From Deltaproteobacteria bacterium (GTDB lineage Bacteria > Myxococcota_A > UBA9042 > DTJE01): a stretch of DNA of 64,000 bases. The stretch spans positions 680,452-744,451 of the forward strand of contig JAKPOP010000010.1 of assembly GCA_029547805.1 (NCBI GenBank), read 5' to 3'. Made by a program: the position numbers and the translations under genes. Numbering within the stretch: position 1 is the stretch's first letter; every line of letters starts with the position of its first letter. This document shows positions 2,285 to 61,411 of the stretch, piece by piece. The notes under the pieces are model-generated. The model searched no databases and was not told where the DNA came from. It worked only from the letters and a program-made list of their open reading frames with translations.

Positions 2285-4903
2285 CTACGGACGGCGATGC
2301 CGGGAGGGTTCCCCGGGAACCGGTGGAACCTCCAGCCCCCACTCGGCCAGGGAGACCAACAGCGTCCCCAGGGGCCGGGCGTTCAGGATGCCCGAACTCG
2401 GGGTGGGCGTCGTCGGCCTCTCCCGGGAGAGTCCGTGGAACCACTCCACCCAGTCGTTGGACACCCGGAGGCTCCGGATGGCCAGGTCCACCAGGAAGGC
2501 CAGCGCCTCCATCGTGGGGCCATGGCCACTGTCCAGCAGCATCTGGAAGGTGGTCCGGTCCAGGTCCATCACCTCGCAGGGGCCCACCGCCTGGACCGAG
2601 CAGAGCCGCGGCCCCTGGTCCAGCAGCCCCATCAGGCCCACGACGTTCCCCTCCTCGATCCGACCCGCCTGCCGCGGTGCCCCCTCGTGCTGCAGGTGAA
2701 GGGTCAGGCTGCCCTGGAGGACCAGCGCGGCCCCCCAGGCCCCATCCCCCTCGTGCCAGAACCACTGCCCGGACTCCAGGACCCGCCGGGTCCCCAGGGT
2801 CCCAAAGACCTCCCGGACCTCCTCGGGAATCCGCCTCTCGAGGGTCCGGGGAAGGACCGGGAGGACGAGGCCGTCCCGCCGGGCGGACCGTTGCAGCGTG
2901 TCGAGGATCTCCGAGGCCTGGCGAATCCGCCGGACCAGCTGGGTTCCCACGGTTCGAAGCACCCCCATCCAGGAGAGGGGGTCGTGTTGCCGCAGTTCGT
3001 GCAGCAACACCCGGTCCAGCAGGCAGACCTCCGCATCGTTGTAGGCCTCCACGGTGGCGCTCCGAGGCGCCGGGTCGAGGCAGGCCATCTCGCCGATCAC
3101 GTCCCCGGGCTGGAACATGGCCAGGGCCAGGCGGGACTCCGGGGAACGTTCCACGTCCCGGTAGGCCTTCAACTGGCCCCGGACCACCACCACCATCGTG
3201 TCCCCCGCCTCCCCTTCCCGGAACAGCACCTCGCCGGACTGAACCCGCTGGACCGGAAGGAGTCCTGCCAACCGCATGTACAGGGAATGGAGACCCGCAC
3301 CCCGGGTCAGGCCCAGCAGCCGCAGCGAGGCCTCGTCGAGGATCGAGACGCGTTCCCGACAGCGCACGAGGCGCCGGGAGAAGAACTCCATGTCGGGTCC
3401 GCCGACGGCCCGCAGGGCCCAGCGCTCCCACTGCTCCCGGAGTTCCCGTTCCGCGCCGGAGACCTCTTCCAGGATTCCCTGGAGGTCCCGATCCGCCAGG
3501 ATCTCCTCGGGGCTCCGCCGAATCTCCACGTCGAACATGCCCGCCGGGTCCAGGGAATCGGGATCCTCGGGCCTCCGGGTCCACTGGGCGTCCCCCTGTT
3601 CCACCTCCGCGACAATCCGCGCCAGCCGCTGCCGCTCCCGCTGCACCATCTCCAGCAGGCCATTGATCAGGGCCCGGGCCCCCGGACTGCGCACACGGCC
3701 CATCGAGGACTGGTAGAGCCACCAGACCTTGCCCGTCCGGGGAATCCCCTCCTGGAGGGCCTCCCGAAGAACCTGCTGGATGGCGCTCGTCATCAGGAAC
3801 GGGACGTGGCGGGAGACCTGCCCCCGCTCCAACGGGTTCTCCAGTCCCATCGGGGAGGTCGTCGAGGGCGCCGGGAGGGGCGTCGGACGGCTCGGGATGT
3901 CGGGAATCGGCACGACGACGGTCGGGCCCACCCGGGATTCCCGGGCAGGAACCGCGGCGCCCAGAAGCCTCCGGGCCTCCGAGGCCGTCTGGGGTCGCCG
4001 GTTGGGATCGGTCGCCAGCAGGCTCGCCACCAGGGCGTCCAGCGCCGGGGGCACCTCCGACGCCGGAAGGAGGTCCCGGACCCGGGGTGCGGATCGATGG
4101 AATTTCTTCAACAGGATCGCCAACGAGGAACTGGCCTGGAACGGCAGCTGGCCCGTCAGCAACTCGAAGAGGATCACCCCCAGGGCATAGAGGTCCGACC
4201 GGTGATCCACGGCCTTGCCCTTCGCCTGTTCCGGGCTCATGTAGGCCGGCGTGCCGAAGAGCAGGTTCGGGTCCGACACCCGGGCCTCCAGGTCCAGGAT
4301 CCGGGCCAGCCCGAAGTCCAGTACCTTCACGAACCCCGGAGGTGAATCGAGGAGGAAGATGTTGTCCGGCTTCAGGTCCCGGTGGACCACCCCCTGGCAA
4401 TGGGCATTCTCGATGGCCTCCAGCACCTGATCGATGACCTCGACGACCTCCTCGGTCGGAAGCCGCCCCCCCCGGGAGATCCGATGGTCGGCCAGGCTGC
4501 GACCGACCAGCAACTCCATCACCAGGAAGAACTGGCCGTCGGCGGCCTGGCCGAAGTCGTGGAGCGTGATCACGTGGGGATTCGTGAGGCGGCTGGAGGC
4601 CCGGGCCTCCTGGAAGAAGCGCCGGATCGCATCGGGGTCGTTCATCCGCTCGGGTTTCAGGAGTTTCACCGCCACGTCCCGTTCCATCGACCGCTGGCGG
4701 GCCCGATAGACGGTCCCCATCCCTCCGGACCCCAGGACCTCCACCAGGGTGTAGCGATGGGCGAGCGTGCGGCCCAGGTTCCGATCCCGGTCGTCGATGC
4801 GAAAGGTCGCGGCGCCGTCGAAGGGACACGCCTCCGGTTCCCCCTCGAAGCGGGCGTCACACAGACTGCAATATCGGGCCACGACCGGACCTCCCACCTC
4901 CAT
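2285..4903 (-). CDS. Ser/Thr protein kinase fused to two C-terminal cyclic-nucleotide-binding (cNMP) domains, with an N-terminal Cys-rich zinc-ribbon-like segment
   Basis: 872 aa. Hanks kinase motifs GSGGMGTVY, VAVK, HRDLKPDN, DFG, TPAYMSPE. Two CAP/cNMP-like beta-roll regions (FREGEAGDTMVVVVRGQLKAY... and WHEGDGAWGAALVLQGSLTL...). N-terminus CSLCDARFEGEPEACPFDG. Confidence 0.9.
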   Translation of the reverse strand: MEVGGPVVARYCSLCDARFEGEPEACPFDGAATFRIDDRDRNLGRTLAHRYTLVEVLGSGGMGTVYRARQRSMERDVAVKLLKPERMNDPDAIRRFFQEARASSRLTNPHVITLHDFGQAADGQFFLVMELLVGRSLADHRISRGGRLPTEEVVEVIDQVLEAIENAHCQGVVHRDLKPDNIFLLDSPPGFVKVLDFGLARILDLEARVSDPNLLFGTPAYMSPEQAKGKAVDHRSDLYALGVILFELLTGQLPFQASSSLAILLKKFHRSAPRVRDLLPASEVPPALDALVASLLATDPNRRPQTASEARRLLGAAVPARESRVGPTVVVPIPDIPSRPTPLPAPSTTSPMGLENPLERGQVSRHVPFLMTSAIQQVLREALQEGIPRTGKVWWLYQSSMGRVRSPGARALINGLLEMVQRERQRLARIVAEVEQGDAQWTRRPEDPDSLDPAGMFDVEIRRSPEEILADRDLQGILEEVSGAERELREQWERWALRAVGGPDMEFFSRRLVRCRERVSILDEASLRLLGLTRGAGLHSLYMRLAGLLPVQRVQSGEVLFREGEAGDTMVVVVRGQLKAYRDVERSPESRLALAMFQPGDVIGEMACLDPAPRSATVEAYNDAEVCLLDRVLLHELRQHDPLSWMGVLRTVGTQLVRRIRQASEILDTLQRSARRDGLVLPVLPRTLERRIPEEVREVFGTLGTRRVLESGQWFWHEGDGAWGAALVLQGSLTLHLQHEGAPRQAGRIEEGNVVGLMGLLDQGPRLCSVQAVGPCEVMDLDRTTFQMLLDSGHGPTMEALAFLVDLAIRSLRVSNDWVEWFHGLSRERPTTPTPSSGILNARPLGTLLVSLAEWGLEVPPVPGEPSRHRRP

Positions 4904-5076: not shown

Positions 5077-5114
5077 GGCAGGCTGCAGGGAGGAGTGGCC
5101 GTTCAGGGGGGGGC

Positions 5115-6074
5115 ATGCGCATTCGATTCTATGGTACCCGTGGGTCCTCCCCGGTCTGCAGGGACGGCACCCGGAGGCATGGGGGCAACACCACCTGCCT
5201 GCGGGTCCTGTCCGCCTGCCTGCCGAGGGACACGGCCCTGCTGATCGACGCTGGGAGCGGTCTCGTCGAGGCCGCCCGGGACCTCCGGGCCGAGGGCATC
5301 CGCAAGGTCCTGCTGCTGATGACCCATTACCACCACGATCACACGATGGGATTCCCGATCGCCGGGACGACCCTGGACCCTTCCGTCGAGGTCCATGTCT
5401 TCGGGCCCCGGGAGGATGGCACCGGGCCCCGGGAGGTGTTCGACGCCCTCATGCGCCCCCCTCACTTCCCGGTGCCCTTCTCCCGCATCGAGGGCCACGT
5501 CCGGGTCCACGGCATCGACCAGATGGAGACCCAGCGGCTGCTGGTGCACCGGGAGGCGGGGTTCGTCTGGCAAGCGGCCCCCGGGCCCGACGAGGAGTCG
5601 GGGCCCCGGACCGGACCGGACCAGGACCCCCGTTTCCCGCCGTCCGACTGCCTCCGGGTCCGGATGACCCGGACCGTCCACCCGGAGTACACCGTCAGTT
5701 ACCGACTGGAGGAAGGTCCCACTGGCCGGGTCGCGGCGCTGCTGACGGACCACGAGGCCTCCGATGAGGTCCCGGACCGCCTCCGGACCCATCTCCAGGG
5801 CGTGCACCTGCTGATCCAGGATGCCCAGTACAGCCACTCCCAGTGGAAGGGTTCCAAGGCGGGGTACGGTCATGGCACCGGGGCCTTCGCGGCCCAGGTC
5901 ATGCACGCCGTCGGAGCGGTCCGGCTGGGGCTGACCCACCACGACCCCGAGGCCGACGACCCTCAGGTGGACGCCATCCGCGAGGAGGCCCGCAGGACCC
6001 TGGTGGCCCTGGAAGGCCGGGACCCGGGGGACCTCCTCTTCAGTGCCCGGGACTACCAGGAGGAGGAGGTCTGA
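5115..6074 (+). CDS. MBL-fold metallo-hydrolase, class-II cyclic-nucleotide phosphodiesterase-like (THxHxDH motif)
   Basis: Real start is the internal ATG at 5115 (M117 of track ORF 4767..6074). The upstream part of that ORF is shadow. Motif LLLMTHYHHDHTMGFP is the beta-lactamase-fold zinc motif. 319 aa. Confidence 0.8.
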   Translation: MRIRFYGTRGSSPVCRDGTRRHGGNTTCLRVLSACLPRDTALLIDAGSGLVEAARDLRAEGIRKVLLLMTHYHHDHTMGFPIAGTTLDPSVEVHVFGPREDGTGPREVFDALMRPPHFPVPFSRIEGHVRVHGIDQMETQRLLVHREAGFVWQAAPGPDEESGPRTGPDQDPRFPPSDCLRVRMTRTVHPEYTVSYRLEEGPTGRVAALLTDHEASDEVPDRLRTHLQGVHLLIQDAQYSHSQWKGSKAGYGHGTGAFAAQVMHAVGAVRLGLTHHDPEADDPQVDAIREEARRTLVALEGRDPGDLLFSARDYQEEEV

Positions 6075-46246: not shown

Positions 46247-47065
46247 TCAGTCCCCTTCCCGCTCGGGGCCCCGGCCCAGGTACCAGAGGGCCCGCATCCG
46301 GACCAGGGCCCGGCCGCTCTGCCCGGCCACCAGTTCCAGGGCCCGCTCGGCCTCTTCCGGTGGGAGGTCCCCCAGGGCGCCCACGGCCGCCAGGGCCACG
46401 TCCGGGCCCCCCTCCACCGCCACCCGCCCCAGGGCCGCCGCCCCGTCCCGGCCCCCGATCCGGCTCAGGGCCCCGACGGCCCGGAAGGCGACCTCGTCGT
46501 CCGGCCCCTTCGCCAGGCGCACCAACGCCTGGATCGACTCCCGGTCGGCCCGATCGAGAAGCGCCAGAAGCACCGGCCGCGAGGGCGGCGGGTCCCGATC
46601 CAGCCACTGGGCCACCATGGAACCCGACAAGCCGTAGACCTCGACCTGGGCCAGGGCCTCCTCCAGGGCCTCGGCGACCACCCGGGCCAGGGCCAGGGCC
46701 CGATCCCACTCCGTCATCTCCGGGGACGGGGCCGGCCCCTGGGCGGCACCTTCCACCCGCATGTCGGGTTCGTTGGGGATCGTGATCGTCCACCGGGCGG
46801 TGGCCTGCATCGAAGGCCCGTCCTCCCCCTCGCAGGATGCATCGAGGGCCAGCGTGGCGGCCCCCTGCCGCCCCGGCAGCACCGGGGTCGCCAGCAGGGC
46901 CATCCCCAGGGCCAGCACCACCGGGCAGTCCTCGGCCGGCGCCTCCTCCAGCGGCAGGACCCGCAGGTCGATTCCCGCCGCCCCCGCCCCGGTTCCGGGG
47001 GGTCCCGAGGCGCAGGCCATCCCCACGAGCCCGACGATCCACGCTGTCCGTCGATGGCATCTCAT
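46247..47065 (-). CDS. HEAT/PBS-lyase-repeat lipoprotein
   Basis: Signal + lipobox MRCHRRTAWIVGLVGMACASG. C-terminal repeats AFRAVGALSRIGG... AAVGALGDL. Confidence 0.6.
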   Translation of the reverse strand: MRCHRRTAWIVGLVGMACASGPPGTGAGAAGIDLRVLPLEEAPAEDCPVVLALGMALLATPVLPGRQGAATLALDASCEGEDGPSMQATARWTITIPNEPDMRVEGAAQGPAPSPEMTEWDRALALARVVAEALEEALAQVEVYGLSGSMVAQWLDRDPPPSRPVLLALLDRADRESIQALVRLAKGPDDEVAFRAVGALSRIGGRDGAAALGRVAVEGGPDVALAAVGALGDLPPEEAERALELVAGQSGRALVRMRALWYLGRGPEREGD

Positions 47066-47157
47066 GGCCTCCTTCTACCTCCCAGGGGCCGACTCTTCAA
47101 GGCCACCGGCGGTTTCCGGTCGGCCTGCCGGGGCGTACACTGCCTGAAGGTCGCTGC

Positions 47158-48132
47158 ATGGAGGTCTGGATGGACGCCGATGCCATTCCCGTGGGAATCA
47201 GCGCCTGTCTGCTGGGCGAGGCGGTGCGCTACGACGGCGGTCACCGACGGGACTCCTACATCGTCGGGACGCTGGGCCGCTTCTTCCGATTCGTGCCCTG
47301 CTGTCCGGAGGTCTCGGCGGGCCTCGGCGTCCCTCGCCCGACGATCCGGCTGGTCCGGGTCGGCGATGACCTCCGGGCGATGGGCACCCGGGACCCCCAT
47401 CCCGACGTCACCGACGCCCTGCAGGCCCTGGCCGACCGGGTGATCCGGGACCACCCGGACCTCTGCGGCTTCCTGCTGAAGGCCCGGTCCCCCAGTTGCG
47501 GCATGGAGCGGGTCCCGGTGTACCGATCGGTGGAGGACCAGGGACGACCCGAGAAGCGAGGCGTGGGGGCCTTCGCCCGCCGGCTGATGGCGCTGGCCCC
47601 CGAGATCCCTCTGGAGGAGGAGGGAAGGCTCGGAGACCCGGTGATCCGGGACCACTTCGTGACCCGGGTCTTCACGCTGTGGCGCTTTCGCCGGATGCGG
47701 GATCAAGGCCTGTCGCCGGCGGCCCTGCTGGACTTCCATGCCCGCCACAAACTGCTGTTGCTGGCTCACCACCGTCCCGGATACGTCGCCCTGGGACGCC
47801 TGCTGGCCGCCCGGGCCGGGGACCGGGACCTGGAGGCGGTGGCCCGGGACTACCTGGCCGGGCTCACCGAGACCCTCCGTCACCCCGCCACCCGGGGCAG
47901 GAACACCGACGTGCTCCAGCACCTTGCAGGCTTCCTGAAGCGGGACCTCGACGCCGCGGACCGTGCGGAGATCGCCGAGGTCATCGATGCCTATCGCCGG
48001 GGCCAGGTCCCCCTGATTGTCCCGATCACGCTGCTCCGGCACCACTTCCGCCGCCACCCCCACCCCTACGTCGCCGGTCAGGTGTATCTGGAGCCCCATC
48101 CCCCGGAACTGGCGCTCCGCAACGGCGTCTGA
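47158..48132 (+). CDS. DUF523 + DUF1722 two-domain protein (YbgA-like)
   Basis: Start at MEVWMDADAIPVGISACLLGEAVRYDGGH (ATG 47158). N-terminal DUF523 Cys motif. C-terminal DUF1722 helical region. Confidence 0.75.
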   Translation: MEVWMDADAIPVGISACLLGEAVRYDGGHRRDSYIVGTLGRFFRFVPCCPEVSAGLGVPRPTIRLVRVGDDLRAMGTRDPHPDVTDALQALADRVIRDHPDLCGFLLKARSPSCGMERVPVYRSVEDQGRPEKRGVGAFARRLMALAPEIPLEEEGRLGDPVIRDHFVTRVFTLWRFRRMRDQGLSPAALLDFHARHKLLLLAHHRPGYVALGRLLAARAGDRDLEAVARDYLAGLTETLRHPATRGRNTDVLQHLAGFLKRDLDAADRAEIAEVIDAYRRGQVPLIVPITLLRHHFRRHPHPYVAGQVYLEPHPPELALRNGV

Positions 48133-48308
48133 CCCCGGTATCGGAACGGAATGGCAACGGTCGCGCGGCGACGACCGGTTTGACGCCCCCCCCGCCGGCG
48201 GTCCATACTGCCCCCATGAGGACGTCATGTGGTCTGGCAGGGACACGGCCCCGGGTGTCCCCTGCGCCCCTCGGCCGCCAACAGGCCTGTCGGCCGAGCG
48301 TTGCTGGC

Positions 48309-50363
48309 ATGGCCCCGTGGGGCCTCGTTGCAATGCTGGCGACGGGCCTGATGGCCTCCCCCGCCGGCGCCGACACCCCGCCGGACCCCTCGCCCCGCAC
48401 GGTCCGCGTCGGCGTCTATCAGAACAAGCCCAAGGTGTTCCAGGATCCGAAGGGGCGGCCCGCCGGGCTCTTCATCGAACTGCTGGAGGAGATCGCCCGC
48501 CGGGAGGGCTGGGCCCTGCAGTTCGTGCCCTGCCGCTGGTCCGAGTGCCTGGAGGCCGTCACCCAGGGCCGGATCGACCTGATGCCCGACGTCGCCTACA
48601 GCCGCGAGCGGGACCGCCTGTTCCACTTCCACCAGACGCCGGTCATCGAGAGCTGGTCCCAGGTGTTCGCCCGGTCCACCGCCGACATCCGGACCCTGTC
48701 GGACCTGGACGGCCTGCGGATCGCCGCGCTTCGGGACTCGATCCAGGAGGCCTCCTTCCGGCAGATGATCGCCGGCTTCGGGATCCGGGCGACCCTCGTG
48801 CCCACCGAGACGCTGGAAGAGGCCTTCGAGGCGGTCCGGGAGGGTGTCGCCGACGCCGCCATCGCGAACCACATGTTCGGGGAGTACTTCCATCGCCAGT
48901 ACGGCCTGGTCCGCACGGCCATCGTGTTCGAGGTCGCGGAACTGTACTTCGTCACGGCCAGGGACCAGAACGGCGACCTGCTGGAGGCCATCGATCGCCA
49001 CCTGTCGGCCTGGGTCCGGGAGCCGAACTCGCGGTACTACGCCACCCTGTCCCGGTGGATGGACCGTCCCCCCGTCCGGCTGGTCCCCCGGCGGGTTCTG
49101 TGGGTCCTGGGCGTCGTGATGGGTCTGCTGGTCCTGGCGATCGGCGTCATCCTGGTGCTGCGCATGCAGGTCCGGTCCCGCACCCGGCGGCTGGTCCAGG
49201 TCCACGAGGAACTGCGGCAGGCCCAGAAGATGGAGGCCATCGGCAAACTGGCCGGCGGCGTCGCCCATGACTTCAACAACCAGCTGACGGTCATCCTCAG
49301 TTACGCCGAACTGGCCCTGGGCCAGATGCAAGAGTCCGATCCCGGTCACTCGGAGATTCGCGGGATCATGGAGGCGGCGGAACGGGCCGCGGCGCTGACG
49401 CACCAGTTGCTGGCCTTCAGCCGCAAGCAGGTGATGGAGATCCGTCCCCTGGACCTGAACCGGGTCATCCGCGACCTGGAGCCGATGGTCCGCCGGATCC
49501 TGGGGGAGGACATCGTGATCACCCTGGACCTGGCATCAGGCCTGGGGCAGGTCCTGGCCGATCCCAGCCAGATGGAACAGGTGCTGATGAACCTGGTCGT
49601 GAACGCCCGGGACGCGATGCCCTCGGGAGGGAGGCTGACCATCCGCACCAGCGCCGTTCGCATGGAGGACGTCGTTCCCCGGGGCCAGGCCGACATGAGA
49701 CCGGGGCCCGGCATCCTGTTGACCGTGTCGGACACCGGCATCGGGATGGACGAGGCGACCCGCCTCCGCGTCTTCGAGCCGTTCTTCACCACCAAGGAGC
49801 CCGGCAAGGGGACCGGCCTGGGCCTCTCGACGGTCTATGGCATCGTCCGGCAGAGCGGCGGCCACATCTGGGTCCAGAGCAGGCCCGGGGAGGGCACCAC
49901 GTTCCACATCTGCCTCCCGGAGGCCCCCGAGGCGCCAGCGGCCAGCGACGGCCCGCCCCGACCGGAGGCTGCTCCGTCCACCGGCCCCCACGGCACCGAG
50001 ACGGTCCTGCTGGTCGAGGACGAGGCGTCGATCCGGGCCCTGGAGCAACAGGCGCTGCGTGCCGCCGGCTTCACGGTCCTGGCAGCGGCCGACAGCGACG
50101 AGGCCCTCCGGCTGGCCCGGCAGCACCCGGGCGAGATCCACCTGCTCCTGACGGACCTGGTCCTGCCGGGCGACAGCGGTGCCGCCCTGGCCCGCGAGGT
50201 GGTCACGGCGCGACCCCGGATCCGCGTGCTGTACATGTCCGGCTACACCGACGACATGGCGGTCCGCCAGGGGATGCTGGACCCCGGCGCCCGGTTCATC
50301 GCCAAGCCCTTCACCACCGAGTCCCTGGTCCGGAAGGTCCGGGAGACGCTGGACCGCCCCTGA
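48309..50363 (+). CDS. Hybrid sensor histidine kinase with periplasmic solute-binding (SBP_bac_3-like) sensor, TM, HisKA, HATPase_c and C-terminal receiver
   Basis: Start at signal peptide [21 protein letters not shown] (alternative ATG at about 48216). H-box [12 protein letters not shown]-boxes DTGIGMD / GTGLGLS. REC with LVEDE...D...K. Confidence 0.8.
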
Positions 50364-53956: not shown

Positions 53957-56506
53957 TCACCGGGAGGACCGGGCCCGGGACGGAGGCCGGGACTCGTCGG
54001 GGACCGGCACGGATCGCCGGCGGCCCAGGACCAGCAGGAGGCCCAGGCCCAGGAGCCCCCACACACCCGAGGCCGTCCCTTCCGAGGCCGCGGTTCCGCA
54101 CCCGCTGGAAGTGCGTCGGCCACCAGGACCCACGTCCTCGCCGGCAGGGTCCCCCTGGGGCCCCGGCGTCTCGGCCACGGCATCCTGTCCAGGACCAGGC
54201 TCCCGCAGGTCCCGGGCCTCGCCGTCGGGTCCAGCCTCGCCTGCGTCCGATCCACCCGACAGGTCGGAGGGTCCCTGGTCGGGCAGGTCTACGGTCCCGA
54301 CGTCCGACGGGGTGTCGGGGGCCTCGGGACCGGGGGCCTCGGGGGTGGGTTCGGGGTCACAGGCCGGGTCATGGACGCCGACACAGAGGCCCCGGCCGTC
54401 GCAGGAATCCTCCCGGGTGCAGGGATCCCCGTCGTCGCACTCGGTGCCCTCCTCGGCGAAGGGGCTGGTGCAGGTCCCGGTCCCGGGGTCGCAGGTCCCG
54501 GCGACGTGGCAGGGCGAGGCCGGAAGACACATCACCAGATCCTCGCCCACACAGATCCCGTCCCGGCAGGCATCGGATCGGGTACAGGGGTTCCCGTCGT
54601 CGCACCCCGTCCCGTCGGTGGCCGGAGGATTCGTGCAGGTCCCGGTCGCCGGGTCGCACCGCCCGGCCACGTGGCACGCGTCCTGGGCCATGCACGTCAC
54701 CGGGTTCCCGCCGGTGCAGACCCCCGCCACACACCGGTCCGTCCGGGTGCAGGCATTCCCGTCGTCGCACCCCGTCCCGTCGGCCGCCGGGGTCTTCCGG
54801 CAGGTCCCATCCACGCAACTCTCCACCGTGCAGGGGTTCCCGTCGTCCGGGCACGCGCCACAATCGACGCACCCGTCGAACCCGCAGGATCCTGCATCAC
54901 AGGCCGCCCCGATCGTGCAGACCCGGAACGAGATCGTGGTTCCGGTAGCCCCGATGTCGAAGACGCGAATGCCTCCCGGGGCCCCTGACGACAGGAACGG
55001 ATAGGGGTTCCGGCCGGCGCTGAAGTCGGTCCGGCCGTAGTCCTGGGCCATCACCGCATTCTCGATGGTCCCCTCGGCAGAGGGCGTCCCGCCGGGCCGG
55101 AAGACATACACCTCGTCGGGCGGTCCCTCGGAGTTCCCCGACAGGGAGGGGTTGACGCGATAGGCCAGCAGGCCGGTCCCCGGCAGGGACGTCTCGTACG
55201 ACCCGGTCCGCCTTCGGTACTCCAGGAAGAAGTACTCGGTGGACGACCCGGGCGCCGCCACCAGCAGGTGGTTGTCCACGGGGCTGGTGACGTCGTTGAG
55301 GGTGAACCGCCCGCGCACCACTTGCCTGAGCGCCGGGATCCACCCGCCGTAGCGATACTTCATGTAGGCGCCCATGTGCTGGGGCGTCGGAAAGGTCCCC
55401 TCCATCAGGTCCCAGGGCCCCACCGGCGTCCGGCCATCCAGGCTGTAGTGATAGAGGTCCGGCGCGCCCAGCGTGTGGAACATCTCGTGGCACAGCACCC
55501 CCAGCTCGATCCAGGAGGACAGTTGGAGGTTGAAGTCCCACACCCGCTTGCCCCGAATGTCGGCCTCGTACAGGTAGAGGGACCACCGATGGGGCCACAG
55601 CAGTTCGGCCCAGGAACCGTAGGCCCCCTGGACCACCAGCACGACGCTGTCCACGTAGCCGTCGGCATCGGCGTCGATGTTCAGTTCCGCTGGGACCTGG
55701 CCGGCAATGGCGGTCACCGCCCGGGCCACCAGGGCCTGTTCCCGTTCGATCCGCTGGGAACCGTCAGCCCCCCCCTGGTAGCCACCCGGATTGAACCAGG
55801 GGTCGTAGGGCTCGTAGTAGGACCTCGGATAGGGGTCCTGGTAGGAGACGACGTACCCCCCGGAGGGCACCGGGAAGAAGGAGGACTGGATGGCCAGTTG
55901 CTGGTAGGAGACCTCCCGGAAGTAGGACCACATCGAGAGGCCAGGGCCGTTCATGAGCCCGTCATAGACCCCGATGGGCTGGCCGAACTCGGCCTGGTCG
56001 CTGAACCGGACGAAGACCACCAGATTGTTCAGGACCCCTCGACGGGGGGCGGGATTCAGCGGTGCGGGGGACAGGGATGGCGTCGTCGGGGTTCCGGAAT
56101 CCGGGGCCCGGGAGGGCGACGGGACCCGGGGTGGCCGGGGCACCGCGCCCAGCCAGGGGACCAGCGTCTGTGGCGCATCGGCGGCCTGCGGCGACAGTCC
56201 CATCCGCTCCGGGTCGGCCTGGCCGACGGCCAGCACTGTGGGGACCAGCCGCCCGCCCACCTCCGCCCCGTACACCCACCAGCCCGTCGGGTCCCGGACC
56301 ACGGTGAATCCCCGGGCGTCGTGGACCCGCTGGCGGTACTCGTCGCCGCTGACCAGGAGCCACCACTCGGTGCCGTCAGGCTGCACGACCCGGACCGGCC
56401 TGTCCCGCAGCGGCGCCCCTGCCGCCGGACCACCGGCGAGGACTCCCAGCAGCATCGCGACTGCCAGCCGTCGAAACCTGCCACCGATCCCCAACCACCG
56501 GGCCAT
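53957..56506 (-). CDS. M6-family (immune-inhibitor-A-like) zinc metalloprotease with C-terminal Cys-rich repeats and MYXO-CTERM-type tail
   Basis: Signal MARWLGIGGRFRRLAVAMLLGVLAGGPAAGA. HExxH CHEMFHTLG. Repeats CDDGNACTRTDRC... (same module as the gene at 12008). Tail ...SSGCGTAASEGTASGVWGLLGLGLLLVLGRRR, followed by 18 extra residues before the stop. Confidence 0.85.
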   Translation of the reverse strand: MARWLGIGGRFRRLAVAMLLGVLAGGPAAGAPLRDRPVRVVQPDGTEWWLLVSGDEYRQRVHDARGFTVVRDPTGWWVYGAEVGGRLVPTVLAVGQADPERMGLSPQAADAPQTLVPWLGAVPRPPRVPSPSRAPDSGTPTTPSLSPAPLNPAPRRGVLNNLVVFVRFSDQAEFGQPIGVYDGLMNGPGLSMWSYFREVSYQQLAIQSSFFPVPSGGYVVSYQDPYPRSYYEPYDPWFNPGGYQGGADGSQRIEREQALVARAVTAIAGQVPAELNIDADADGYVDSVVLVVQGAYGSWAELLWPHRWSLYLYEADIRGKRVWDFNLQLSSWIELGVLCHEMFHTLGAPDLYHYSLDGRTPVGPWDLMEGTFPTPQHMGAYMKYRYGGWIPALRQVVRGRFTLNDVTSPVDNHLLVAAPGSSTEYFFLEYRRRTGSYETSLPGTGLLAYRVNPSLSGNSEGPPDEVYVFRPGGTPSAEGTIENAVMAQDYGRTDFSAGRNPYPFLSSGAPGGIRVFDIGATGTTISFRVCTIGAACDAGSCGFDGCVDCGACPDDGNPCTVESCVDGTCRKTPAADGTGCDDGNACTRTDRCVAGVCTGGNPVTCMAQDACHVAGRCDPATGTCTNPPATDGTGCDDGNPCTRSDACRDGICVGEDLVMCLPASPCHVAGTCDPGTGTCTSPFAEEGTECDDGDPCTREDSCDGRGLCVGVHDPACDPEPTPEAPGPEAPDTPSDVGTVDLPDQGPSDLSGGSDAGEAGPDGEARDLREPGPGQDAVAETPGPQGDPAGEDVGPGGRRTSSGCGTAASEGTASGVWGLLGLGLLLVLGRRRSVPVPDESRPPSRARSSR

Positions 56507-56626: not shown

Positions 56627-58387
56627 TCATCGCCCGCAGTTACGACCGGGACCATCGTCGAACACCTGGGGGTCGGCCCCGCCGGGGACCGGGGTCGAGG
56701 ACTCGGGGGCGGCGATGCTCCAGGCCTCCCCGACCAGCAGCATGTTGTCCAGGGGATAACTGGACAGGAAGGTCTTCAGGAATCGGAGCGAGTAGCCCCC
56801 GATCAGGACGTCGCACTCCTCGGGAATCCCGTCGGGGTCCACCTGGGGGGGATCGCCCCCGCAGGGGGGCATCGTCCCGGAGGATCCCGGCATGCAGCCG
56901 GAGATTGCCCCGCGGCAGTATTCGCCAACCAGGATGCCGTCCAGATCGTCCAGGGCCTTCCGCCCGGTGGCGTGGATCTCCAGCAGGCCCTCGGCCACCT
57001 GCGGCACTCCCCCCGAGTCGTCGAACCGGGCCTGCAGGGTCAGTTCCTGGACCTCCAGGCGGACATGCCATGCCGGGTCCAGCGGAACGCCCAGCAGGGC
57101 CCGCAGCAGGGGCGCCAGGTCCATCTCCATCCGGGTCGGCCCTCCCGTGGCGCAGGGGCCGTCCATCTGGACCGGGAAGTCCACGCAGGACACCTCGTCC
57201 AGGGAACCGTAGTAGTCCCCCTGCCGCCGGGCGAAGGTCATCCGGCCCTCGAAGCGACGGGTCCCGGGATCCCAGGAGTCCAGCCGGAACACGAAGGGCA
57301 TGTCGTCCAGGCCGTCCCCCTCGAAGCCCGTCAGGCCCGGGAGGTTCGTGGAGATGGTCCCCAGGTGCAGGACCTGGACCGTGCCGACGGCCGCGGAGGG
57401 GTCCTCCAGGGGCTCCCCGGCCGGGTCGCACCGAAATTCCGGGAGGCTCCCGAAGGGGATCTCCGACTCGTTGACGATGGTGAGACGACGGGCCTCGGGG
57501 TCGAACTCCACCAGGTAGTAGAACACCCCCGAGGGGTCCACGTTGCGCACCAGGTAGTAGGGAAGCCCGCAGAAGGTCCCCTTCCAGAAGCCGTGGAGAT
57601 GGCCGGCGAAGACCCCCTGGAACACGCCCGGGTGATCGGTGATGACCTGGCACAGGGTGTCCTCGCCGCCGCTGGCCAGTTCCTCGGTGGGGGGATGATG
57701 GAAGAAGAGGATCGTGGGCATCCCATCGGCCACCTGGGTCCGCAGCCAGGCCAGTTGCGCACCGGTGAAGGACCCCACCAGGCCGCTGGACGAGAGCCAC
57801 TGGCTGCCCGCCATCGAGTTCATCATCACGAGGCGCACCCCGTCCTGGACCACCGCGTCGTCCAGGTCCCTGCCCAGCACCGAGGACAGCCACGCATCCC
57901 GGGCCGCCTTGTCGGCGGTGATCCGAAGCATCTCGTCCCGGTAGTACTCGTGGTTGCCGACCCCGATGTGGACCGGCCACTTCAGGCCCCCGAGCGTCCG
58001 GATCGCGATCCGGAAGGTGGACTCGTCCTCTGGCTGGAGGTCGTCGGAGAGGTAGTCCACCAGGTCGCCGGTGACGACGACCAGGTCTGCCGGGAAATCG
58101 ATCCCGTTCAGGTGATCCACCGCCTTCACGACGTGGGCCGGGTCCGGGTGGGCCGCGTCGCCCCAGACATGGACGTCCGAGATGTGGATGAACCGCAGCA
58201 CCCGCGGTGGCGAAGCGACCTCTGGTGCCTCATCCCACCCATCGGTCCCGGCGGCCATGTCGTCCAGCGAGATGTCCCGCCCCGAGTCGGTGAGGCCCCC
58301 GTCCTCGGCCAGGTCCCTGCCGCCGTCACCCCCGGGATCGACGTCCCGGACGTCTGCATCGCCCGGAGACCCTCCCCCCCCCTCCAC
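56627..58387 (-). CDS. Calcineurin-like metallophosphoesterase, probably a lipoprotein whose signal peptide lies in another frame upstream of a G9 homopolymer
   Basis: Motifs HISDVH, VTGDLVD, GNHE, HHP, GHLHG. The annotated frame begins at GTG 58387 with a Gly/Asp-rich linker. An ATG at about 58430 in the adjacent frame encodes MKRGIPILACLVLACGGGG (signal + lipobox) and runs into the G-run. Confidence 0.75.
   Translation of the reverse strand: MEGGGGSPGDADVRDVDPGGDGGRDLAEDGGLTDSGRDISLDDMAAGTDGWDEAPEVASPPRVLRFIHISDVHVWGDAAHPDPAHVVKAVDHLNGIDFPADLVVVTGDLVDYLSDDLQPEDESTFRIAIRTLGGLKWPVHIGVGNHEYYRDEMLRITADKAARDAWLSSVLGRDLDDAVVQDGVRLVMMNSMAGSQWLSSSGLVGSFTGAQLAWLRTQVADGMPTILFFHHPPTEELASGGEDTLCQVITDHPGVFQGVFAGHLHGFWKGTFCGLPYYLVRNVDPSGVFYYLVEFDPEARRLTIVNESEIPFGSLPEFRCDPAGEPLEDPSAAVGTVQVLHLGTISTNLPGLTGFEGDGLDDMPFVFRLDSWDPGTRRFEGRMTFARRQGDYYGSLDEVSCVDFPVQMDGPCATGGPTRMEMDLAPLLRALLGVPLDPAWHVRLEVQELTLQARFDDSGGVPQVAEGLLEIHATGRKALDDLDGILVGEYCRGAISGCMPGSSGTMPPCGGDPPQVDPDGIPEECDVLIGGYSLRFLKTFLSSYPLDNMLLVGEAWSIAAPESSTPVPGGADPQVFDDGPGRNCGR
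58372..58381 (-). repeat. Homopolymeric G9 (C9 on top strand) tract at the signal-peptide/mature-domain junction of the metallophosphoesterase gene
   Basis: Read directly. The track translations of both overlapping frames (..LACGGGGRVSG.. and MEGGGGSPGD..) require a nine-G run. Removing one G fuses the lipoprotein signal to the enzyme body in frame. Confidence 0.7.
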
Positions 58388-58558
58388 AGGCCAGCACCAG
58401 GCACGCCAGGATCGGGATGCCTCTCTTCATGACGCCTCCAGCGGTGTCTGGACCCGTGCCCTGCCGCGTCCCAGGAGCCGCGGACATCCCGGGCCGGGAG
58501 GCAGTGTAGCCCGGCCGTGGCCAATGCTCCAGCGGCACTCCTGGCCAAAAACGACCTG

Positions 58559-59437
58559 CTAGGGAGCGAGGATGCGTCCTGGGGCGCCGTTTCGCCCCTC
58601 CCGGGTATGGCAGTCCATGCAGTTCATGTTGTCCTGGGGGGTGGCCATCATCCGCTCCCGGCCGCCCAGGGCGAGTCGGACGGTGTAGGGCCGGGCGGGC
58701 TGGAAGGCCCCGGAGGCCATGAAGTTCCCCGAGGCATTGGTCACAAACGTCGTGCGGCTGCCGTTGGCGTCGGTGATCTCGACGGTCACGCCGGAAACCC
58801 CGAGGCAGTCGTCCACGTCCCGGAGGGCGCCCATCACGGTCCCGGCCATCGGGAACAGGGGGGCATCGTCTTCGCCCGCGGCCCGCTGCTGCTGGTGGCA
58901 GGCGATGCAGTTCCGGCCGGGATGCATCTCGGGCTTCCCGTCGTCCCCCTTCAGCCAGTAGGCCCCCGAGGAACAGGCCACCTCGGGGACCTCGGGACCC
59001 GTGTCCACACCCCCCGGGTCCCCGCCGGCCGGCAGGTCGTCGCCACCGGGAACCGGGGGACAGTCGGCCTTGCCGTCGGCGATCCACTGGGCCACGGTCC
59101 GGACGTCCCCCGGAGGCACCGAACCACCCGGGGGCATGCTCCCGGCCTGCATCCGGGCCAGGCCCCGGTCGGCATTGGCCGATGCCAGCGCGTAGGTGTC
59201 GTAGTCCACCCCCGCCGGGGCGCCACTCCGGGCCGCGCCGCTCCGGGTGCTGGCATGGCACCCGGTGCACCACCGCTCCAGGACCGGCCGGACGTCCCGG
59301 CACCACGAGACGACGGTCCCCGCCGGCAGGTCCGGCGCCGGGGCCAGATCGATGGCCCGCACCGGGTCGATCTTCTGGCCGCAGGCCCAGAGGCCCAGCA
59401 TCGCTGCGCACATCACCACCAGGCGATTCCGATCCAT
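58559..59437 (-). CDS. Triheme c-type cytochrome lipoprotein with an embedded CarboxypepD_reg-like beta-sandwich
   Basis: Signal + lipobox MDRNRLVVMCAAMLGLWACGQ. Three CxxCH motifs (CTGCH, CIACH, CMDCH). Segment VTVEITDANGSRTTFVTNASGNF between hemes 2 and 3. Confidence 0.8.
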   Translation of the reverse strand: MDRNRLVVMCAAMLGLWACGQKIDPVRAIDLAPAPDLPAGTVVSWCRDVRPVLERWCTGCHASTRSGAARSGAPAGVDYDTYALASANADRGLARMQAGSMPPGGSVPPGDVRTVAQWIADGKADCPPVPGGDDLPAGGDPGGVDTGPEVPEVACSSGAYWLKGDDGKPEMHPGRNCIACHQQQRAAGEDDAPLFPMAGTVMGALRDVDDCLGVSGVTVEITDANGSRTTFVTNASGNFMASGAFQPARPYTVRLALGGRERMMATPQDNMNCMDCHTREGRNGAPGRILAP

Positions 59438-60823: not shown

Positions 60824-60958
60824 CGGTCACCTCCCCCGACCATTTCTGCGAGGCTTGAGGGAAGGATACTCCGGGCATGACGCCACGGGCAAGGACTTTT
60901 GGACTTTTCGGAGAAGGCTTCTCTGGGTATCATCGGACGTCCCTGGAGGGAGTCATCG

Positions 60959-61411
60959 ATGCGTGCCCAGACGTGCCTGACGCTGCTGCTGGTCCCCTCG
61001 GCCCTGGCCTGCTACGACACGGGTCCCCTGATGCGCCCCGGCGAGAACTGCATGGGGTGCCACACCGGCGGCCGGGCGCCCCGGTGGGAGGTCGCCGGCA
61101 CGGTCTTCGAGTGCGCCCAGGCCGATCGCCACGAGGGGGTGGCCGGCGTGGACGTGGTGTTCCGGGACGCGAACGGCACCGAGGTGCTGCGCCTGACGAC
61201 CAACGAGGCCGGCAACTTCTACTCGAAGACGGACCTGCCCGAGGGATACCGGGTCTCCCTGGTCCGGGGCGAGACGGTGCGGGAGATGCCCTTCACGCCC
61301 ACCAAGGGGGCCTGCAACTCGTGTCACACCATGCCGCCGGAGAACGGGGCCCCGGGGCGGCTGTACATCGGGACCATCCCGTGCAGCGCTCCGGCCCCGT
61401 CGGACTCCTGA
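60959..61411 (+). CDS. Diheme c-type cytochrome lipoprotein, paralogous to the 58559..59437 cytochrome
   Basis: Start at MRAQTCLTLLLVPSALAC (lipobox, M21 of the track ORF). SD GGAGGGA upstream. CMGCH and CNSCH. Same inter-heme CarboxypepD_reg-like segment (VDVVFRDANGTEVLRLTTNEAGNF). Confidence 0.75.
   Translation: MRAQTCLTLLLVPSALACYDTGPLMRPGENCMGCHTGGRAPRWEVAGTVFECAQADRHEGVAGVDVVFRDANGTEVLRLTTNEAGNFYSKTDLPEGYRVSLVRGETVREMPFTPTKGACNSCHTMPPENGAPGRLYIGTIPCSAPAPSDS

Follow-up and report, generated by a model that had tools for sequence, protein, structure and literature searches.

Organisation of the phosphoesterase locus

The window (the whole stretch of DNA that was analysed, 64 kb) carries on its minus strand a metallophosphoesterase gene in which a lipoprotein signal peptide and the body of the enzyme lie in different reading frames on either side of a run of nine G residues (Table 1). 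The ATG at 58430-58428 opens a frame that translates as MKRGIPILACLVLAC-GGGG, in which Cys15 is encoded by TGT (58388-58386), the residues LVLAC fit a PROSITE-type lipobox and the G9 run occupies codons 16-19. Past the run this frame continues for 15 codons (RVSGRCRRPGRRSRG) before ending at a TGA (58328-58326). The body frame translates at its 5' end as MEGGGGSPGDADV... and begins at a GTG that overlaps the Cys15 codon; no Shine-Dalgarno-like motif was seen ahead of this GTG (58387) on reading the sequence. The initial annotation had described a signal peptide starting near 58430, the nine-G run and a stop 15 codons later, all of which were found on the minus strand, but had placed the start of the body inside the run, while the GTG in fact lies 2 nt 5' of it.

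Removal of one G restores a continuous 600-aa lipoprotein (MKRGIPILACLVLACGGGGGSPGDADV...), as that annotation had proposed, with a junction matching that of the sister-lineage protein P0030. When alleles from G5 to G12 were enumerated, G8 or G11 placed the two parts in frame, and G9 and G10 left them out of frame; no G5-G12 variant proteins of the window strain were found by homology search or among the members of the 90% protein cluster.

Table 1. Features of the phosphoesterase locus and the downstream gene
Feature	Position	Strand	Remarks
Candidate -10/promoter element GGGCTACACTG	58501..58511	(-)	TACACT at 58508-58503; ~73 nt upstream of ATG
Shine-Dalgarno GGAGG	58435..58439	(-)	4 nt 5' of ATG; invariant in 5/5 aligned loci
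Predicted lipoprotein signal peptide Met1-Cys15, MKRGIPILACLVLAC	58386..58430	(-)	lipobox LVLA|C; from translation
Truncated 34-codon ORF	58326..58430	(-)	signal peptide, GGGG, 15 out-of-frame codons and TGA
G9 homopolymer (C9 on + strand)	58374..58382	(-)	frameshift site; one G more than in-frame G8 of sister lineage
Metallophosphoesterase body ORF, P0001	56627..58387	(-)	GTG start, 586 aa and stop; +1 frame relative to ATG
Disordered Gly/Asp/Pro linker	58387-58217	(-)	part 1 of body ORF
Metallophos domain	about 58198-57476	(-)	part 2 of body ORF
Cys-rich C-terminal beta-barrel region	57475-56630	(-)	part 3 of body ORF
M6-family metalloprotease with MYXO-CTERM sorting signal	53957..56506	(-)	TIGR03296 122.6 bits; TIGR03901 weak match

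The upstream element GGGCTACACTG is found 5' of the orthologous ATG in the window and in loci L004, L002, L006, L007 and L003, and is kept in L003 despite a different upstream neighbour. Because a scan for consensus sigma-70 sequences upstream of the phosphoesterase gene returned no promoter, we treat the element and its TACACT hexamer as a candidate only. A search of the whole window against Rfam at gathering thresholds gave no match. Synteny between the phosphoesterase and the downstream M6 protease is kept in L002, L004 and L001, and if the two genes are co-transcribed the protease could suffer polarity from 1.7 kb of untranslated phosphoesterase mRNA.

The encoded protein

The body has the hallmarks of a dimetal phosphoesterase fold. 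It matches the calcineurin-like metallophosphoesterase family PF00149 with 48 bits (gathering cut-off 21.5) and contains all of the metal-binding motifs DxH, GD, GNHE, H and GHxH, with every residue that is invariant among 27 sequences (D71, H73, G107-D108, G144-N145-H146-E147, H230, G262-H263 and H265) kept in the window copy. All ten invariant cysteines (10/10) are likewise retained, which suggests an extracytoplasmic, disulfide-bonded protein. The SpdA 2',3'-cNMP phosphodiesterase equivalog NF050112 was not reached (61.3 bits, cut-off 400), a match that backs the predicted domain only and does not mark the protein as an orthologue of SpdA.

The restored N-terminus consists of an MKR n-region, a GIPILACLVLA h-region and a lipobox ending in Cys15 (pattern [LIVMFWSTAG]{2}[LIVMFYSTAGCQ][AGS]C), so that the restored protein is a predicted bacterial lipoprotein and Lgt/LspA substrate. 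The Gly/Asp-rich linker which the initial annotation had expected after the lipobox cysteine is present as the disordered segment at the start of the body. The catalytic fold and motifs are common to class III phosphodiesterases and glycerophosphodiesterases of the PF00149 type (Rv0805, Icc/CpdA, GpdQ), to which the window protein adds the lipoprotein signal, ~60 aa of disordered linker and, at the C-terminus, a Cys-rich beta-barrel region that is ~280 aa long and belongs to no Pfam family.

Orthologues and the G8 sister lineage

All full-length homologues have an N-terminal signal peptide that ends in Cys and is fused to the body, 22 of the 24 matching the lipobox pattern and the other 2/24 carrying a near-lipobox signal ending in Cys. 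Orthologues that start at an internal GTG with no signal peptide, which would have spoken for the annotated start, were thus not encountered when the orthologous locus was compared. The sister-lineage protein P0030 (95% amino acid identity) reads MRRGIPVLACLVLACGGGGGSPGDA..., in frame through G8, which bears out the earlier view that the G run parts a lipoprotein signal from its phosphoesterase body. The signal peptides of the two proteins are identical at 13/15 residues, and the 15 upstream codons of the window can be aligned with the orthologues' signal peptides, both as protein and as DNA. A junction of the form signal-Cys-GGG(G/S)G(S/T)P is found in P0030 (95%), P0002/P0032 (77%) and P0003 (75%).

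At the DNA level the closest relative, L004, has the same flanks, 95.7% nucleotide identity and a G8 tract in frame; at the junction the window differs from the sister lineage by one extra G only, and over 7.7 kb of alignment with L004 no indel but this one breaks a coding frame. Alignments with all of the other orthologues likewise show a single-base gap at G9. The more distant loci L002, L006, L007 and L003 encode the linker in mixed codons (e.g. GGC GGA GGG TCC GGA) with no long run, and at 75–78% identity orthologues lack an uninterrupted G tract. The loci can be arranged as a series, from interrupted Gly codons in the outgroups to G8 in the sister lineage and G9 in the window strain.

Tract length differs between the two close lineages, with one state seen in each (five contig records per lineage). 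Within the 90% protein cluster the window strain has only G9-type N-termini (P0001 on 2 contigs, P0028 on 3), and the sister lineage has only the G8-type protein (P0030 on 5 Logan contigs). A protein-based scan of JGI data recovered one 78% orthologue, L007, with an interrupted tract, and L008, a C-terminal piece recovered from activated sludge, which matches the window at 99.5% identity and does not extend to the tract; searching JGI metagenome contigs with the tract-flank DNA pattern GCTGGCCTGTGGA N{5,14} AGGGTCTCCGGGCGA gave 0 matches. Among GTDB species representatives only a 77% orthologue, JAGOKF010000072, was matched, with neither the window genome nor the G8 lineage among the matches. 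The organism's habitat is activated sludge or a digester, not a host.

Selection on the body and origin of the tract

Pairwise dN/dS between the window and L004 is 0.30, within the range of intact orthologue pairs (0.26–0.34). Although polarised counts are small (28 changes on the window branch and 17 on the L004 branch), those on the window branch divide into 13 nonsynonymous and 15 synonymous against a neutral expectation of ~74% nonsynonymous (binomial p = 0.0016), a proportion no different from that of the L004 branch with its 7 nonsynonymous and 10 synonymous changes (Fisher p = 0.77). The body thus shows no apparent sign of decay or relaxed selection. Such an absence is equally expected for a frequently reverting switch or for a gene expressed by another route.

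GGG is the commonest Gly codon in the window (43% of Gly codons), so the tract can be accounted for without selection; codon usage gives a probability of ~0.18 for a pair of GGG codons with any Gly codon after it, an arrangement that makes G8 or more. G/C runs of lengths 5 to 9 number 311, 63, 10, 4 and 1 in the 64-kb window (71% GC), and the single 9-base run, which is also the only run of at least 9 bases, fits the decay of this distribution. One G9 run in 64 kb at such GC is not improbable by itself; its position and effect are not chance. The 8-base runs lie at 4466, 5106, 48186 and 55768. The C8 run at 48186-48193, near a switch of coding frame, was considered as a second homopolymer frameshift and rejected, since the upstream ORF stops at 48132, before the run.

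A probable recent frameshift by slipped-strand insertion

The data establish how the locus is built, that the sister lineage has G8 in frame, that all homologues have a signal peptide and that G9 is reproducible; from them we infer that the ninth G arose by slippage, that it is recent and reversible and that expression is lost. We propose, as the most probable account, a genuine and recent slipped-strand insertion from G8 to G9 by which the gene is turned off, reversibly in principle, in a tract that is no evolved device. The tract encodes the poly-Gly linker directly after the lipobox Cys of a conserved Myxococcota lipoprotein metallophosphoesterase, and the ninth G was most likely gained by slipped-strand mispairing during replication. 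Ribosomes would initiate at the SD-ATG of 58430, where both elements are invariant across the aligned loci, make the signal peptide, cross the run in the wrong frame and terminate 15 codons on. The gene would then be effectively off, because the body is severed from its only good translation start and its export/lipidation signal; loss of one G or gain of two should regain the frame. The insertion is probably recent, given a body with no sign of relaxed selection, and the tract itself would be a side effect of encoding a Gly-Gly-Gly linker in a GGG-preferring genome.

The initial annotation had left three alternatives side by side: an inactivating frameshift, a homopolymer error and an ON/OFF switch. 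The first is now the best reading and an assembly error is unlikely; an evolved phase-variation switch is possible but has gained no positive support.

Alternative explanations

A phase-variable (contingency) locus, with the poly-G tract kept as a reversible switch for production of the exported lipoprotein phosphoesterase, seems to us unlikely. Under this explanation ON cells (G8) and OFF cells (G9) would coexist in the population, with only the majority OFF state captured by the assemblies. A slippage-prone homopolymer does lie within the ORF, where a change of one base switches the frame, and the layout, with G8/G9 at the 5' end of a gene for a surface protein, is classic for such loci; the tract differs by one G between lineages that are ~96% identical in DNA, and the OFF allele is undecayed, as expected under regular return to ON. 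Near-identical architecture in pilus genes of Bifidobacterium breve has been shown experimentally to act as a replication-slippage switch (PMC9187656), and homopolymer phase variants are known in high-GC Mycobacterium tuberculosis (PMC10334774, PMC6667613). However, there is no length variation within either lineage (G9 in 5/5 contig records of the window strain, G8 in 5/5 of its sister), and the tract is neither conserved, the orthologues at 75–78% identity using interrupted codons for the same linker, nor more frequent than composition and codon usage lead one to expect for Gly-Gly-Gly. A further, weak argument against the switch is that a non-host organism of sludge or digesters offers no evident selective rationale.

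It is not possible to distinguish, from the present data, between recent accidental loss and a maintained ON/OFF locus. The fuller proposal, that the tract is a working slipped-strand switch in an uncultured, free-living Myxococcota of wastewater sludge, which gates export of a surface phosphodiesterase and perhaps, via polarity, the downstream M6 protease, is more doubtful still. If true, it would represent bet-hedging of a nutrient-scavenging surface enzyme outside the host-pathogen setting, caught just after arising in two sister lineages.

It is improbable that the true genome has G8 and that the extra G is a homopolymer miscall kept in the consensus. No other homopolymer in the window is as long as G9, a return to G8 reproduces the protein junction of the sister lineage exactly, and the length of the window contig (888,893 nt) presumably reflects long-read sequencing, a technology prone to homopolymer errors. 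However, G9 is base-identical in the window and in two ENA contigs, one with MEGAHIT-style naming (ERZ27257438, k141_339407) and one with SPAdes-style naming at 61x coverage (ERZ761562, NODE_2424), each otherwise 100% identical to the window; L001 and L005 carry the identical G9. The three assemblies represent the same strain, may stem from the same or related samples and could then share a systematic error. Assembly error is unlikely since the three assemblies agree and no other homopolymer breaks an ORF (0/14 for the other runs of at least 7 bases). A general homopolymer error in the assembly was likewise rejected, as these 14 runs are clean and the alignment to L004 contains no further frame-disrupting indel.

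Least probable is continued expression of the G9 gene, whether by ribosomal +1 slippage on the GGG codons ahead of an AGG codon, by RNA-polymerase slippage (a process documented mostly at A/T runs), or by initiation at the GTG of 58387 or at an internal ATG (Met44 of P0001) to give a cytoplasmic enzyme: tRNA-Gly re-pairing would be perfect inside the run, a GGAGG motif lies just 5' of it, the body ORF is intact and gene callers annotate the GTG start, but the frameshift is not conserved and all orthologues are in frame, which rules against programmed recoding, and the GTG, rejected as the native start, has no SD and, like Met44, would yield a product that lacks the signal peptide of every homologue and leaves ten invariant cysteines in the cytoplasm.

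Implications for annotation

The main value of the G9 finding lies in annotation. The deposited 586-aa GTG-start 'metallophosphoesterase' (P0001; partial HOU55251.1 and HQK52553.1) is the decapitated body of a lipoprotein gene; these entries call for a frameshift or pseudogene flag, and their annotated start is unfit for inferring cellular location. The locus may also serve as a natural example of how a poly-Gly linker and a preference for GGG create a slippage-prone site, and hence a gene knock-out, in a high-GC genome. If reads showed mixed tract lengths, environmental Myxococcota would join the groups with homopolymer phase variation, although with a mechanism so well known the conceptual gain would be modest.

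Comparison with known systems

A G8-to-G9 frameshift is an event of an already known kind. The closest likeness is to the bbr_0113a/b and bbr_1889a/b pilus genes of Bifidobacterium breve UCC2003, in which an intragenic G tract acts as a replication-slippage switch (Penno et al. 2022, PMC9187656). Common to both are a short 5' ORF with promoter (a candidate one in the window) and SD, a G tract and a long body ORF in another frame, an annotated body start without SD or signal, a reference genome in the OFF state and fusion of the two ORFs by a change in G count, all in a high-GC genome that is not a classical pathogen. The upstream ORF encodes a Sec signal in the pilus genes and a lipoprotein signal in the window. 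For the B. breve genes, such tracts are known from several Bifidobacterium species and their slippage has been quantified by maximum-depth sequencing (PMC9187656), whereas the window concerns a lipoprotein phosphoesterase of Myxococcota with a tract in two close lineages only, each with one state seen.

Poly-G tracts also lie within the ORFs of hpuA and hmbR in Neisseria meningitidis (PMC3786947; Neisseria phasome, PMC5953494). These genes share with the window a coding-region poly-G in a surface-protein gene, where one-G changes set the ON or OFF frame; tract lengths that vary widely among isolates, documented switching and many loci per genome are known for Neisseria. HpuA is itself a lipoprotein.

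In the high-GC genome of M. tuberculosis, as in the window, G/C homopolymers of 7–9 nt gain one-base frameshifts that inactivate otherwise intact genes, e.g. at the 7C tract of glpK (PMC6667613; bioRxiv 10.1101/717272; PMC10334774). Those frameshifts can revert, as is known from thousands of isolates and reversion experiments, and glpK is cytoplasmic, whereas the two tract states in two lineages described here were read from assembled contigs. Finally, the 5' poly(A) tract of Listeria monocytogenes inlA (Orsi et al. 2010, PMC2831843) lies, like the G9 run, at the extreme 5' end of an exported surface-protein gene, and its one-base frameshift leaves only a very short N-terminal peptide, which has been read as efficient, potentially reversible gene inactivation. 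It differs in being poly(A), in a low-GC Firmicute, with a frameshift frequency that was measured experimentally (Orsi et al. 2010, PMC2831843).

Structure of the interrupted phosphoesterase gene

The minus strand was read directly from 58700 to 58200 and its translations were recomputed. Translation from the ATG yields MKRGIPILACLVLAC, ending in Cys15, after which four glycine codons (GGA GGG GGG GGG) run through the G9 tract and a further 15 codons (RVSGRCRRPGRRSRG) lead up to the TGA. The initial annotation, which described a signal peptide at this ATG, a nine-G run and a stop 15 codons on, is real and was read correctly: each element is present, and removal of a single G in silico joins signal and body, as it had proposed, into one unbroken 600-aa protein (MKRGIPILACLVLACGGGGGSPGDADV...). 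It also placed the GTG of the body ORF inside the G run, but this codon in fact shares bases with the Cys codon and lies 2 nt 5' of the run. No other homopolymer in the window reaches 9 bases, and G/C runs there number 311 (length 5), 63 (6), 10 (7), 4 (8) and 1 (9); by itself the G9 is not improbable, and its location is what counts.

Coordinates of the phosphoesterase gene and neighbouring features in the window
Feature	Position	Strand	Basis or remark
Conserved 11-nt element GGGCTACACTG, contains TACACT	58501-58511	-	~70 nt upstream of phosphoesterase start
Shine-Dalgarno GGAGG	58439-58435	-	sequence reading
Start ATG	58430-58428	-	sequence reading
Cys15 (TGT)	58388-58386	-	ATG-frame translation
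Body ORF, 586 aa, +1 frame, GTG start	58387-56627	-	translation
G9 tract	58382-58374	-	sequence reading
TGA stop of ATG frame	58328-58326	-	translation
M6-family metalloprotease, 849 aa, several Cys-rich repeats, MYXO-CTERM-like tail	53957-56506	-	notably around 54600-54710
292-aa cytochrome c adjoining phosphoesterase	58559-59437	-	
170-aa protein, divergent, lipobox-like signal (SALAC), two CxxCH motifs	60899-61411	+	

The body belongs to the calcineurin-like metallophosphoesterases (PF00149, 48 bits); among solved structures, Rv0805, Icc and the glycerophosphodiesterase GpdQ are nearest to it in sequence. Its AlphaFold model (27 homologues as input) has a mean pLDDT of 83.7, with residues 1-57 disordered and therefore regarded as a linker. 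The family alignment contains the invariant motifs DxH, GD, GNHE, H and GHxH together with ten invariant cysteines, all of which are kept in the window copy.

Orthologues and origin of the tract

A homology search with the repaired 600-aa protein returned 27 proteins at E <= 0.001. P0001, the 586-aa product of the window itself, is alone among full-length forms in starting with MEGGGG. Orthologues starting at the internal GTG, which would have spoken against the initial annotation, were looked for, and full-length homologues instead carry a signal ending in Cys: 22 of 24 have a PROSITE-style lipobox and in the remaining two the signal closes with WGC or AGC, while homologues with no signal at all are contig-end fragments only. 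Two more distant orthologues, P0002 (77%) and P0003 (74%), begin with MRVGFLCLACLVVAC and MRCIPLALVCLALAC, each followed by GGGSGSP. The sister-lineage orthologue P0030 (602 aa, 95% identical), which shares the 90% cluster of P0001, begins with MRRGIPVLACLVLAC followed by GGGGGSPGDA, exactly the junction made by deleting one G in the window. Cluster members are named at NCBI as 'Myxococcota bacterium' MAG proteins, and a sludge digester and activated sludge are the sources of related contigs.

At the DNA level, the locus encoding P0030 (L004, Logan DRR438505) reads GCCTGTGGA-GGGGGGGG-AGGGTCTCC in frame with G8, and the window has the same sequence at the junction apart from G9 instead of G8. 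Over 7.7 kb the two are 95.7% identical and the G run is the only frame-disrupting indel, the further gaps being paired alignment gaps at codons 2 and 3, an in-frame indel of 6 nt and two gaps between genes. In a five-locus alignment the Shine-Dalgarno and ATG are invariant, with a one-column gap at the run in every locus other than the window. The linker codons are interrupted in the more distant loci L002 and L007 (GGC GGA GGG TCC GGA), L006 (GGC GGA GGG GGC GGA) and L003 (GGC GGC GGC AGC GGT), which places the birth of the tract in the ancestor shared by the window strain and L004, with the extra G then gained in the window strain.

Recent lesion, switch or assembly error

On balance we favour a genuine, recent slipped-strand insertion from G8 to G9 that switched off a conserved lipoprotein phosphoesterase in the window strain. 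Pairwise dN/dS is 0.30 for the window against L004 (dS 0.084) and 0.26-0.34 for every other pair, intact versus intact included. When changes were polarised with three outgroups, the window branch carried 13 nonsynonymous and 15 synonymous changes and the L004 branch 7 and 10 (no difference, Fisher p = 0.77), the former deviating strongly from the 74% nonsynonymous changes expected under neutrality (binomial p = 0.0016). Given these counts and the intact invariant residues, either the frameshift is young compared with a branch length of ~0.03 substitutions per synonymous site, or periodic selection still acts on the gene.

Periodic selection would fit a maintained ON/OFF switch, since the body has not decayed, but we think such a switch unlikely. 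The tract is not conserved outside the two sister lineages, nor over-represented as in contingency loci, and the contig records of each lineage show one state with no length variation. Between the two lineages the tract differs, G8 versus G9. Codon usage also suffices to create the tract: GGG is the commonest of the 1,464 glycine codons in the window (43%; GGC next, 33%), making Gly-rich linkers a general source of long G runs in this genome, and GGG GGG plus any glycine codon, equivalent to G8 or more, is expected with p ~0.18, so no selection is needed for it to arise.

An assembly artefact appears quite improbable. The G9 recurs in L001 (ENA ERZ27257438, contig k141_339407, 94 kb; 6,676 nt identical to the window) and L005 (ENA ERZ761562, NODE_2424_length_20536_cov_61.4; 5,275 nt identical; also at NCBI as HOU55251.1 and HQK52553.1), as well as in the window's own contig of 888,893 nt, although these three assemblies represent one strain and may share samples. 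From their names, L001 and L005 are presumably MEGAHIT and SPAdes short-read assemblies. All 14 other runs of at least 7 bases in the window lie within uninterrupted ORFs or between genes, and no G7-, G8-, G10- or G11-type product of the strain was found in the protein collection. There, the five-member cluster comprises the G9-type P0001 (2 contigs) and P0028 (3 contigs), two C-terminal fragments, and P0030 for the G8 lineage (5 Logan contigs).

Separately, L001 departs from the window from ~54710 to its end, within the Cys-rich repeat region of the downstream protease gene, pointing to collapsed repeats or to strain variation in one assembly. In SPAdes-derived MAGs the phosphoesterase gene is split over two contigs at ~57110-57165 (minus strand, codons 408-425), where P0028 ends and P0029 starts with an 18-aa overlap; this assembly-graph break is unrelated to the G run.

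Under the favoured G9 frameshift, ribosomes loading at the conserved Shine-Dalgarno and ATG would stop after 34 codons. The GTG picked by gene callers has no Shine-Dalgarno-like motif in the 20 nt upstream, and the next in-frame ATG is Met44 of P0001; a product from either would lack the signal peptide common to every homologue and would have its ten conserved cysteines in the cytoplasm. Polarity from the 1.7 kb of untranslated mRNA could, in addition, lower expression of the downstream M6 protease, and a comparable effect has been reported in the Bifidobacterium breve case (PMC9187656). Programmed recoding was rejected because the orthologues are in frame, and residual expression from an alternative start or from low-level +1 ribosomal or polymerase slippage on the run is very improbable.

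Neighbourhood and other window features

Synteny in the closest relatives covers the upstream genes for a DUF5777 barrel, a TAT-Rieske protein and a multihaem cytochrome c, as well as the downstream gene for the M6/MYXO-CTERM protease. The GGGCTACACTG element also precedes the orthologous ATG at all orthologous loci (L002, L003, L004, L006 and L007), including L003, in which uvrC takes the place of the cytochrome gene as upstream neighbour. The element may serve as a -10/promoter element of the phosphoesterase gene or as a regulator site; a sigma-70 consensus scan made no call there. The 170-aa protein is paralogous to the 292-aa cytochrome c over the latter's C-terminal half (37% identity, 126 aa, E 6e-17), with a common layout of haem motif, beta-sandwich-like segment, haem motif and GAPGR.

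Elsewhere, a G8 run (5106-5113, plus strand) ends 1 nt before the ATG at 5115 of a coding-biased ORF (MRIRFYGTRGS...), where a length change would shift the 5' UTR and Shine-Dalgarno spacing, not the reading frame. At 46837-50363 (plus strand), codon-position GC indicates two successive coding segments whose frames differ, with the changeover near 48150-48200, next to a C8 run (48186-48193). A second homopolymer frameshift was rejected there because the upstream ORF already stops at 48132, and the segments look like two genes. No Rfam family reached gathering score across the whole 64 kb.

Relation to known systems

The closest described architecture is that of the Bifidobacterium breve UCC2003 pilus genes, in which an intragenic G-tract lies between a short Sec-signal ORF and the long ORF of the body. 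The reference genome there has the out-of-frame state, the annotated body start lacks both Shine-Dalgarno and signal, and maximum-depth sequencing demonstrated replication slippage (PMC9187656). Neisseria hpuA and hmbR, with poly-G tracts within their ORFs, work in the same way (PMC3786947), and further examples are the G/C homopolymer frameshifts of Mycobacterium tuberculosis, such as in glpK (PMC6667613, PMC10334774), and the 5' poly(A) frameshift of Listeria inlA (PMC2831843). The phosphoesterase locus resembles these cases in anatomy but differs from a contingency locus in tract conservation and over-representation. It is a fresh instance of a well-known type of event, the practical value of which concerns annotation, since what was deposited as a GTG-start protein is a decapitated lipoprotein.
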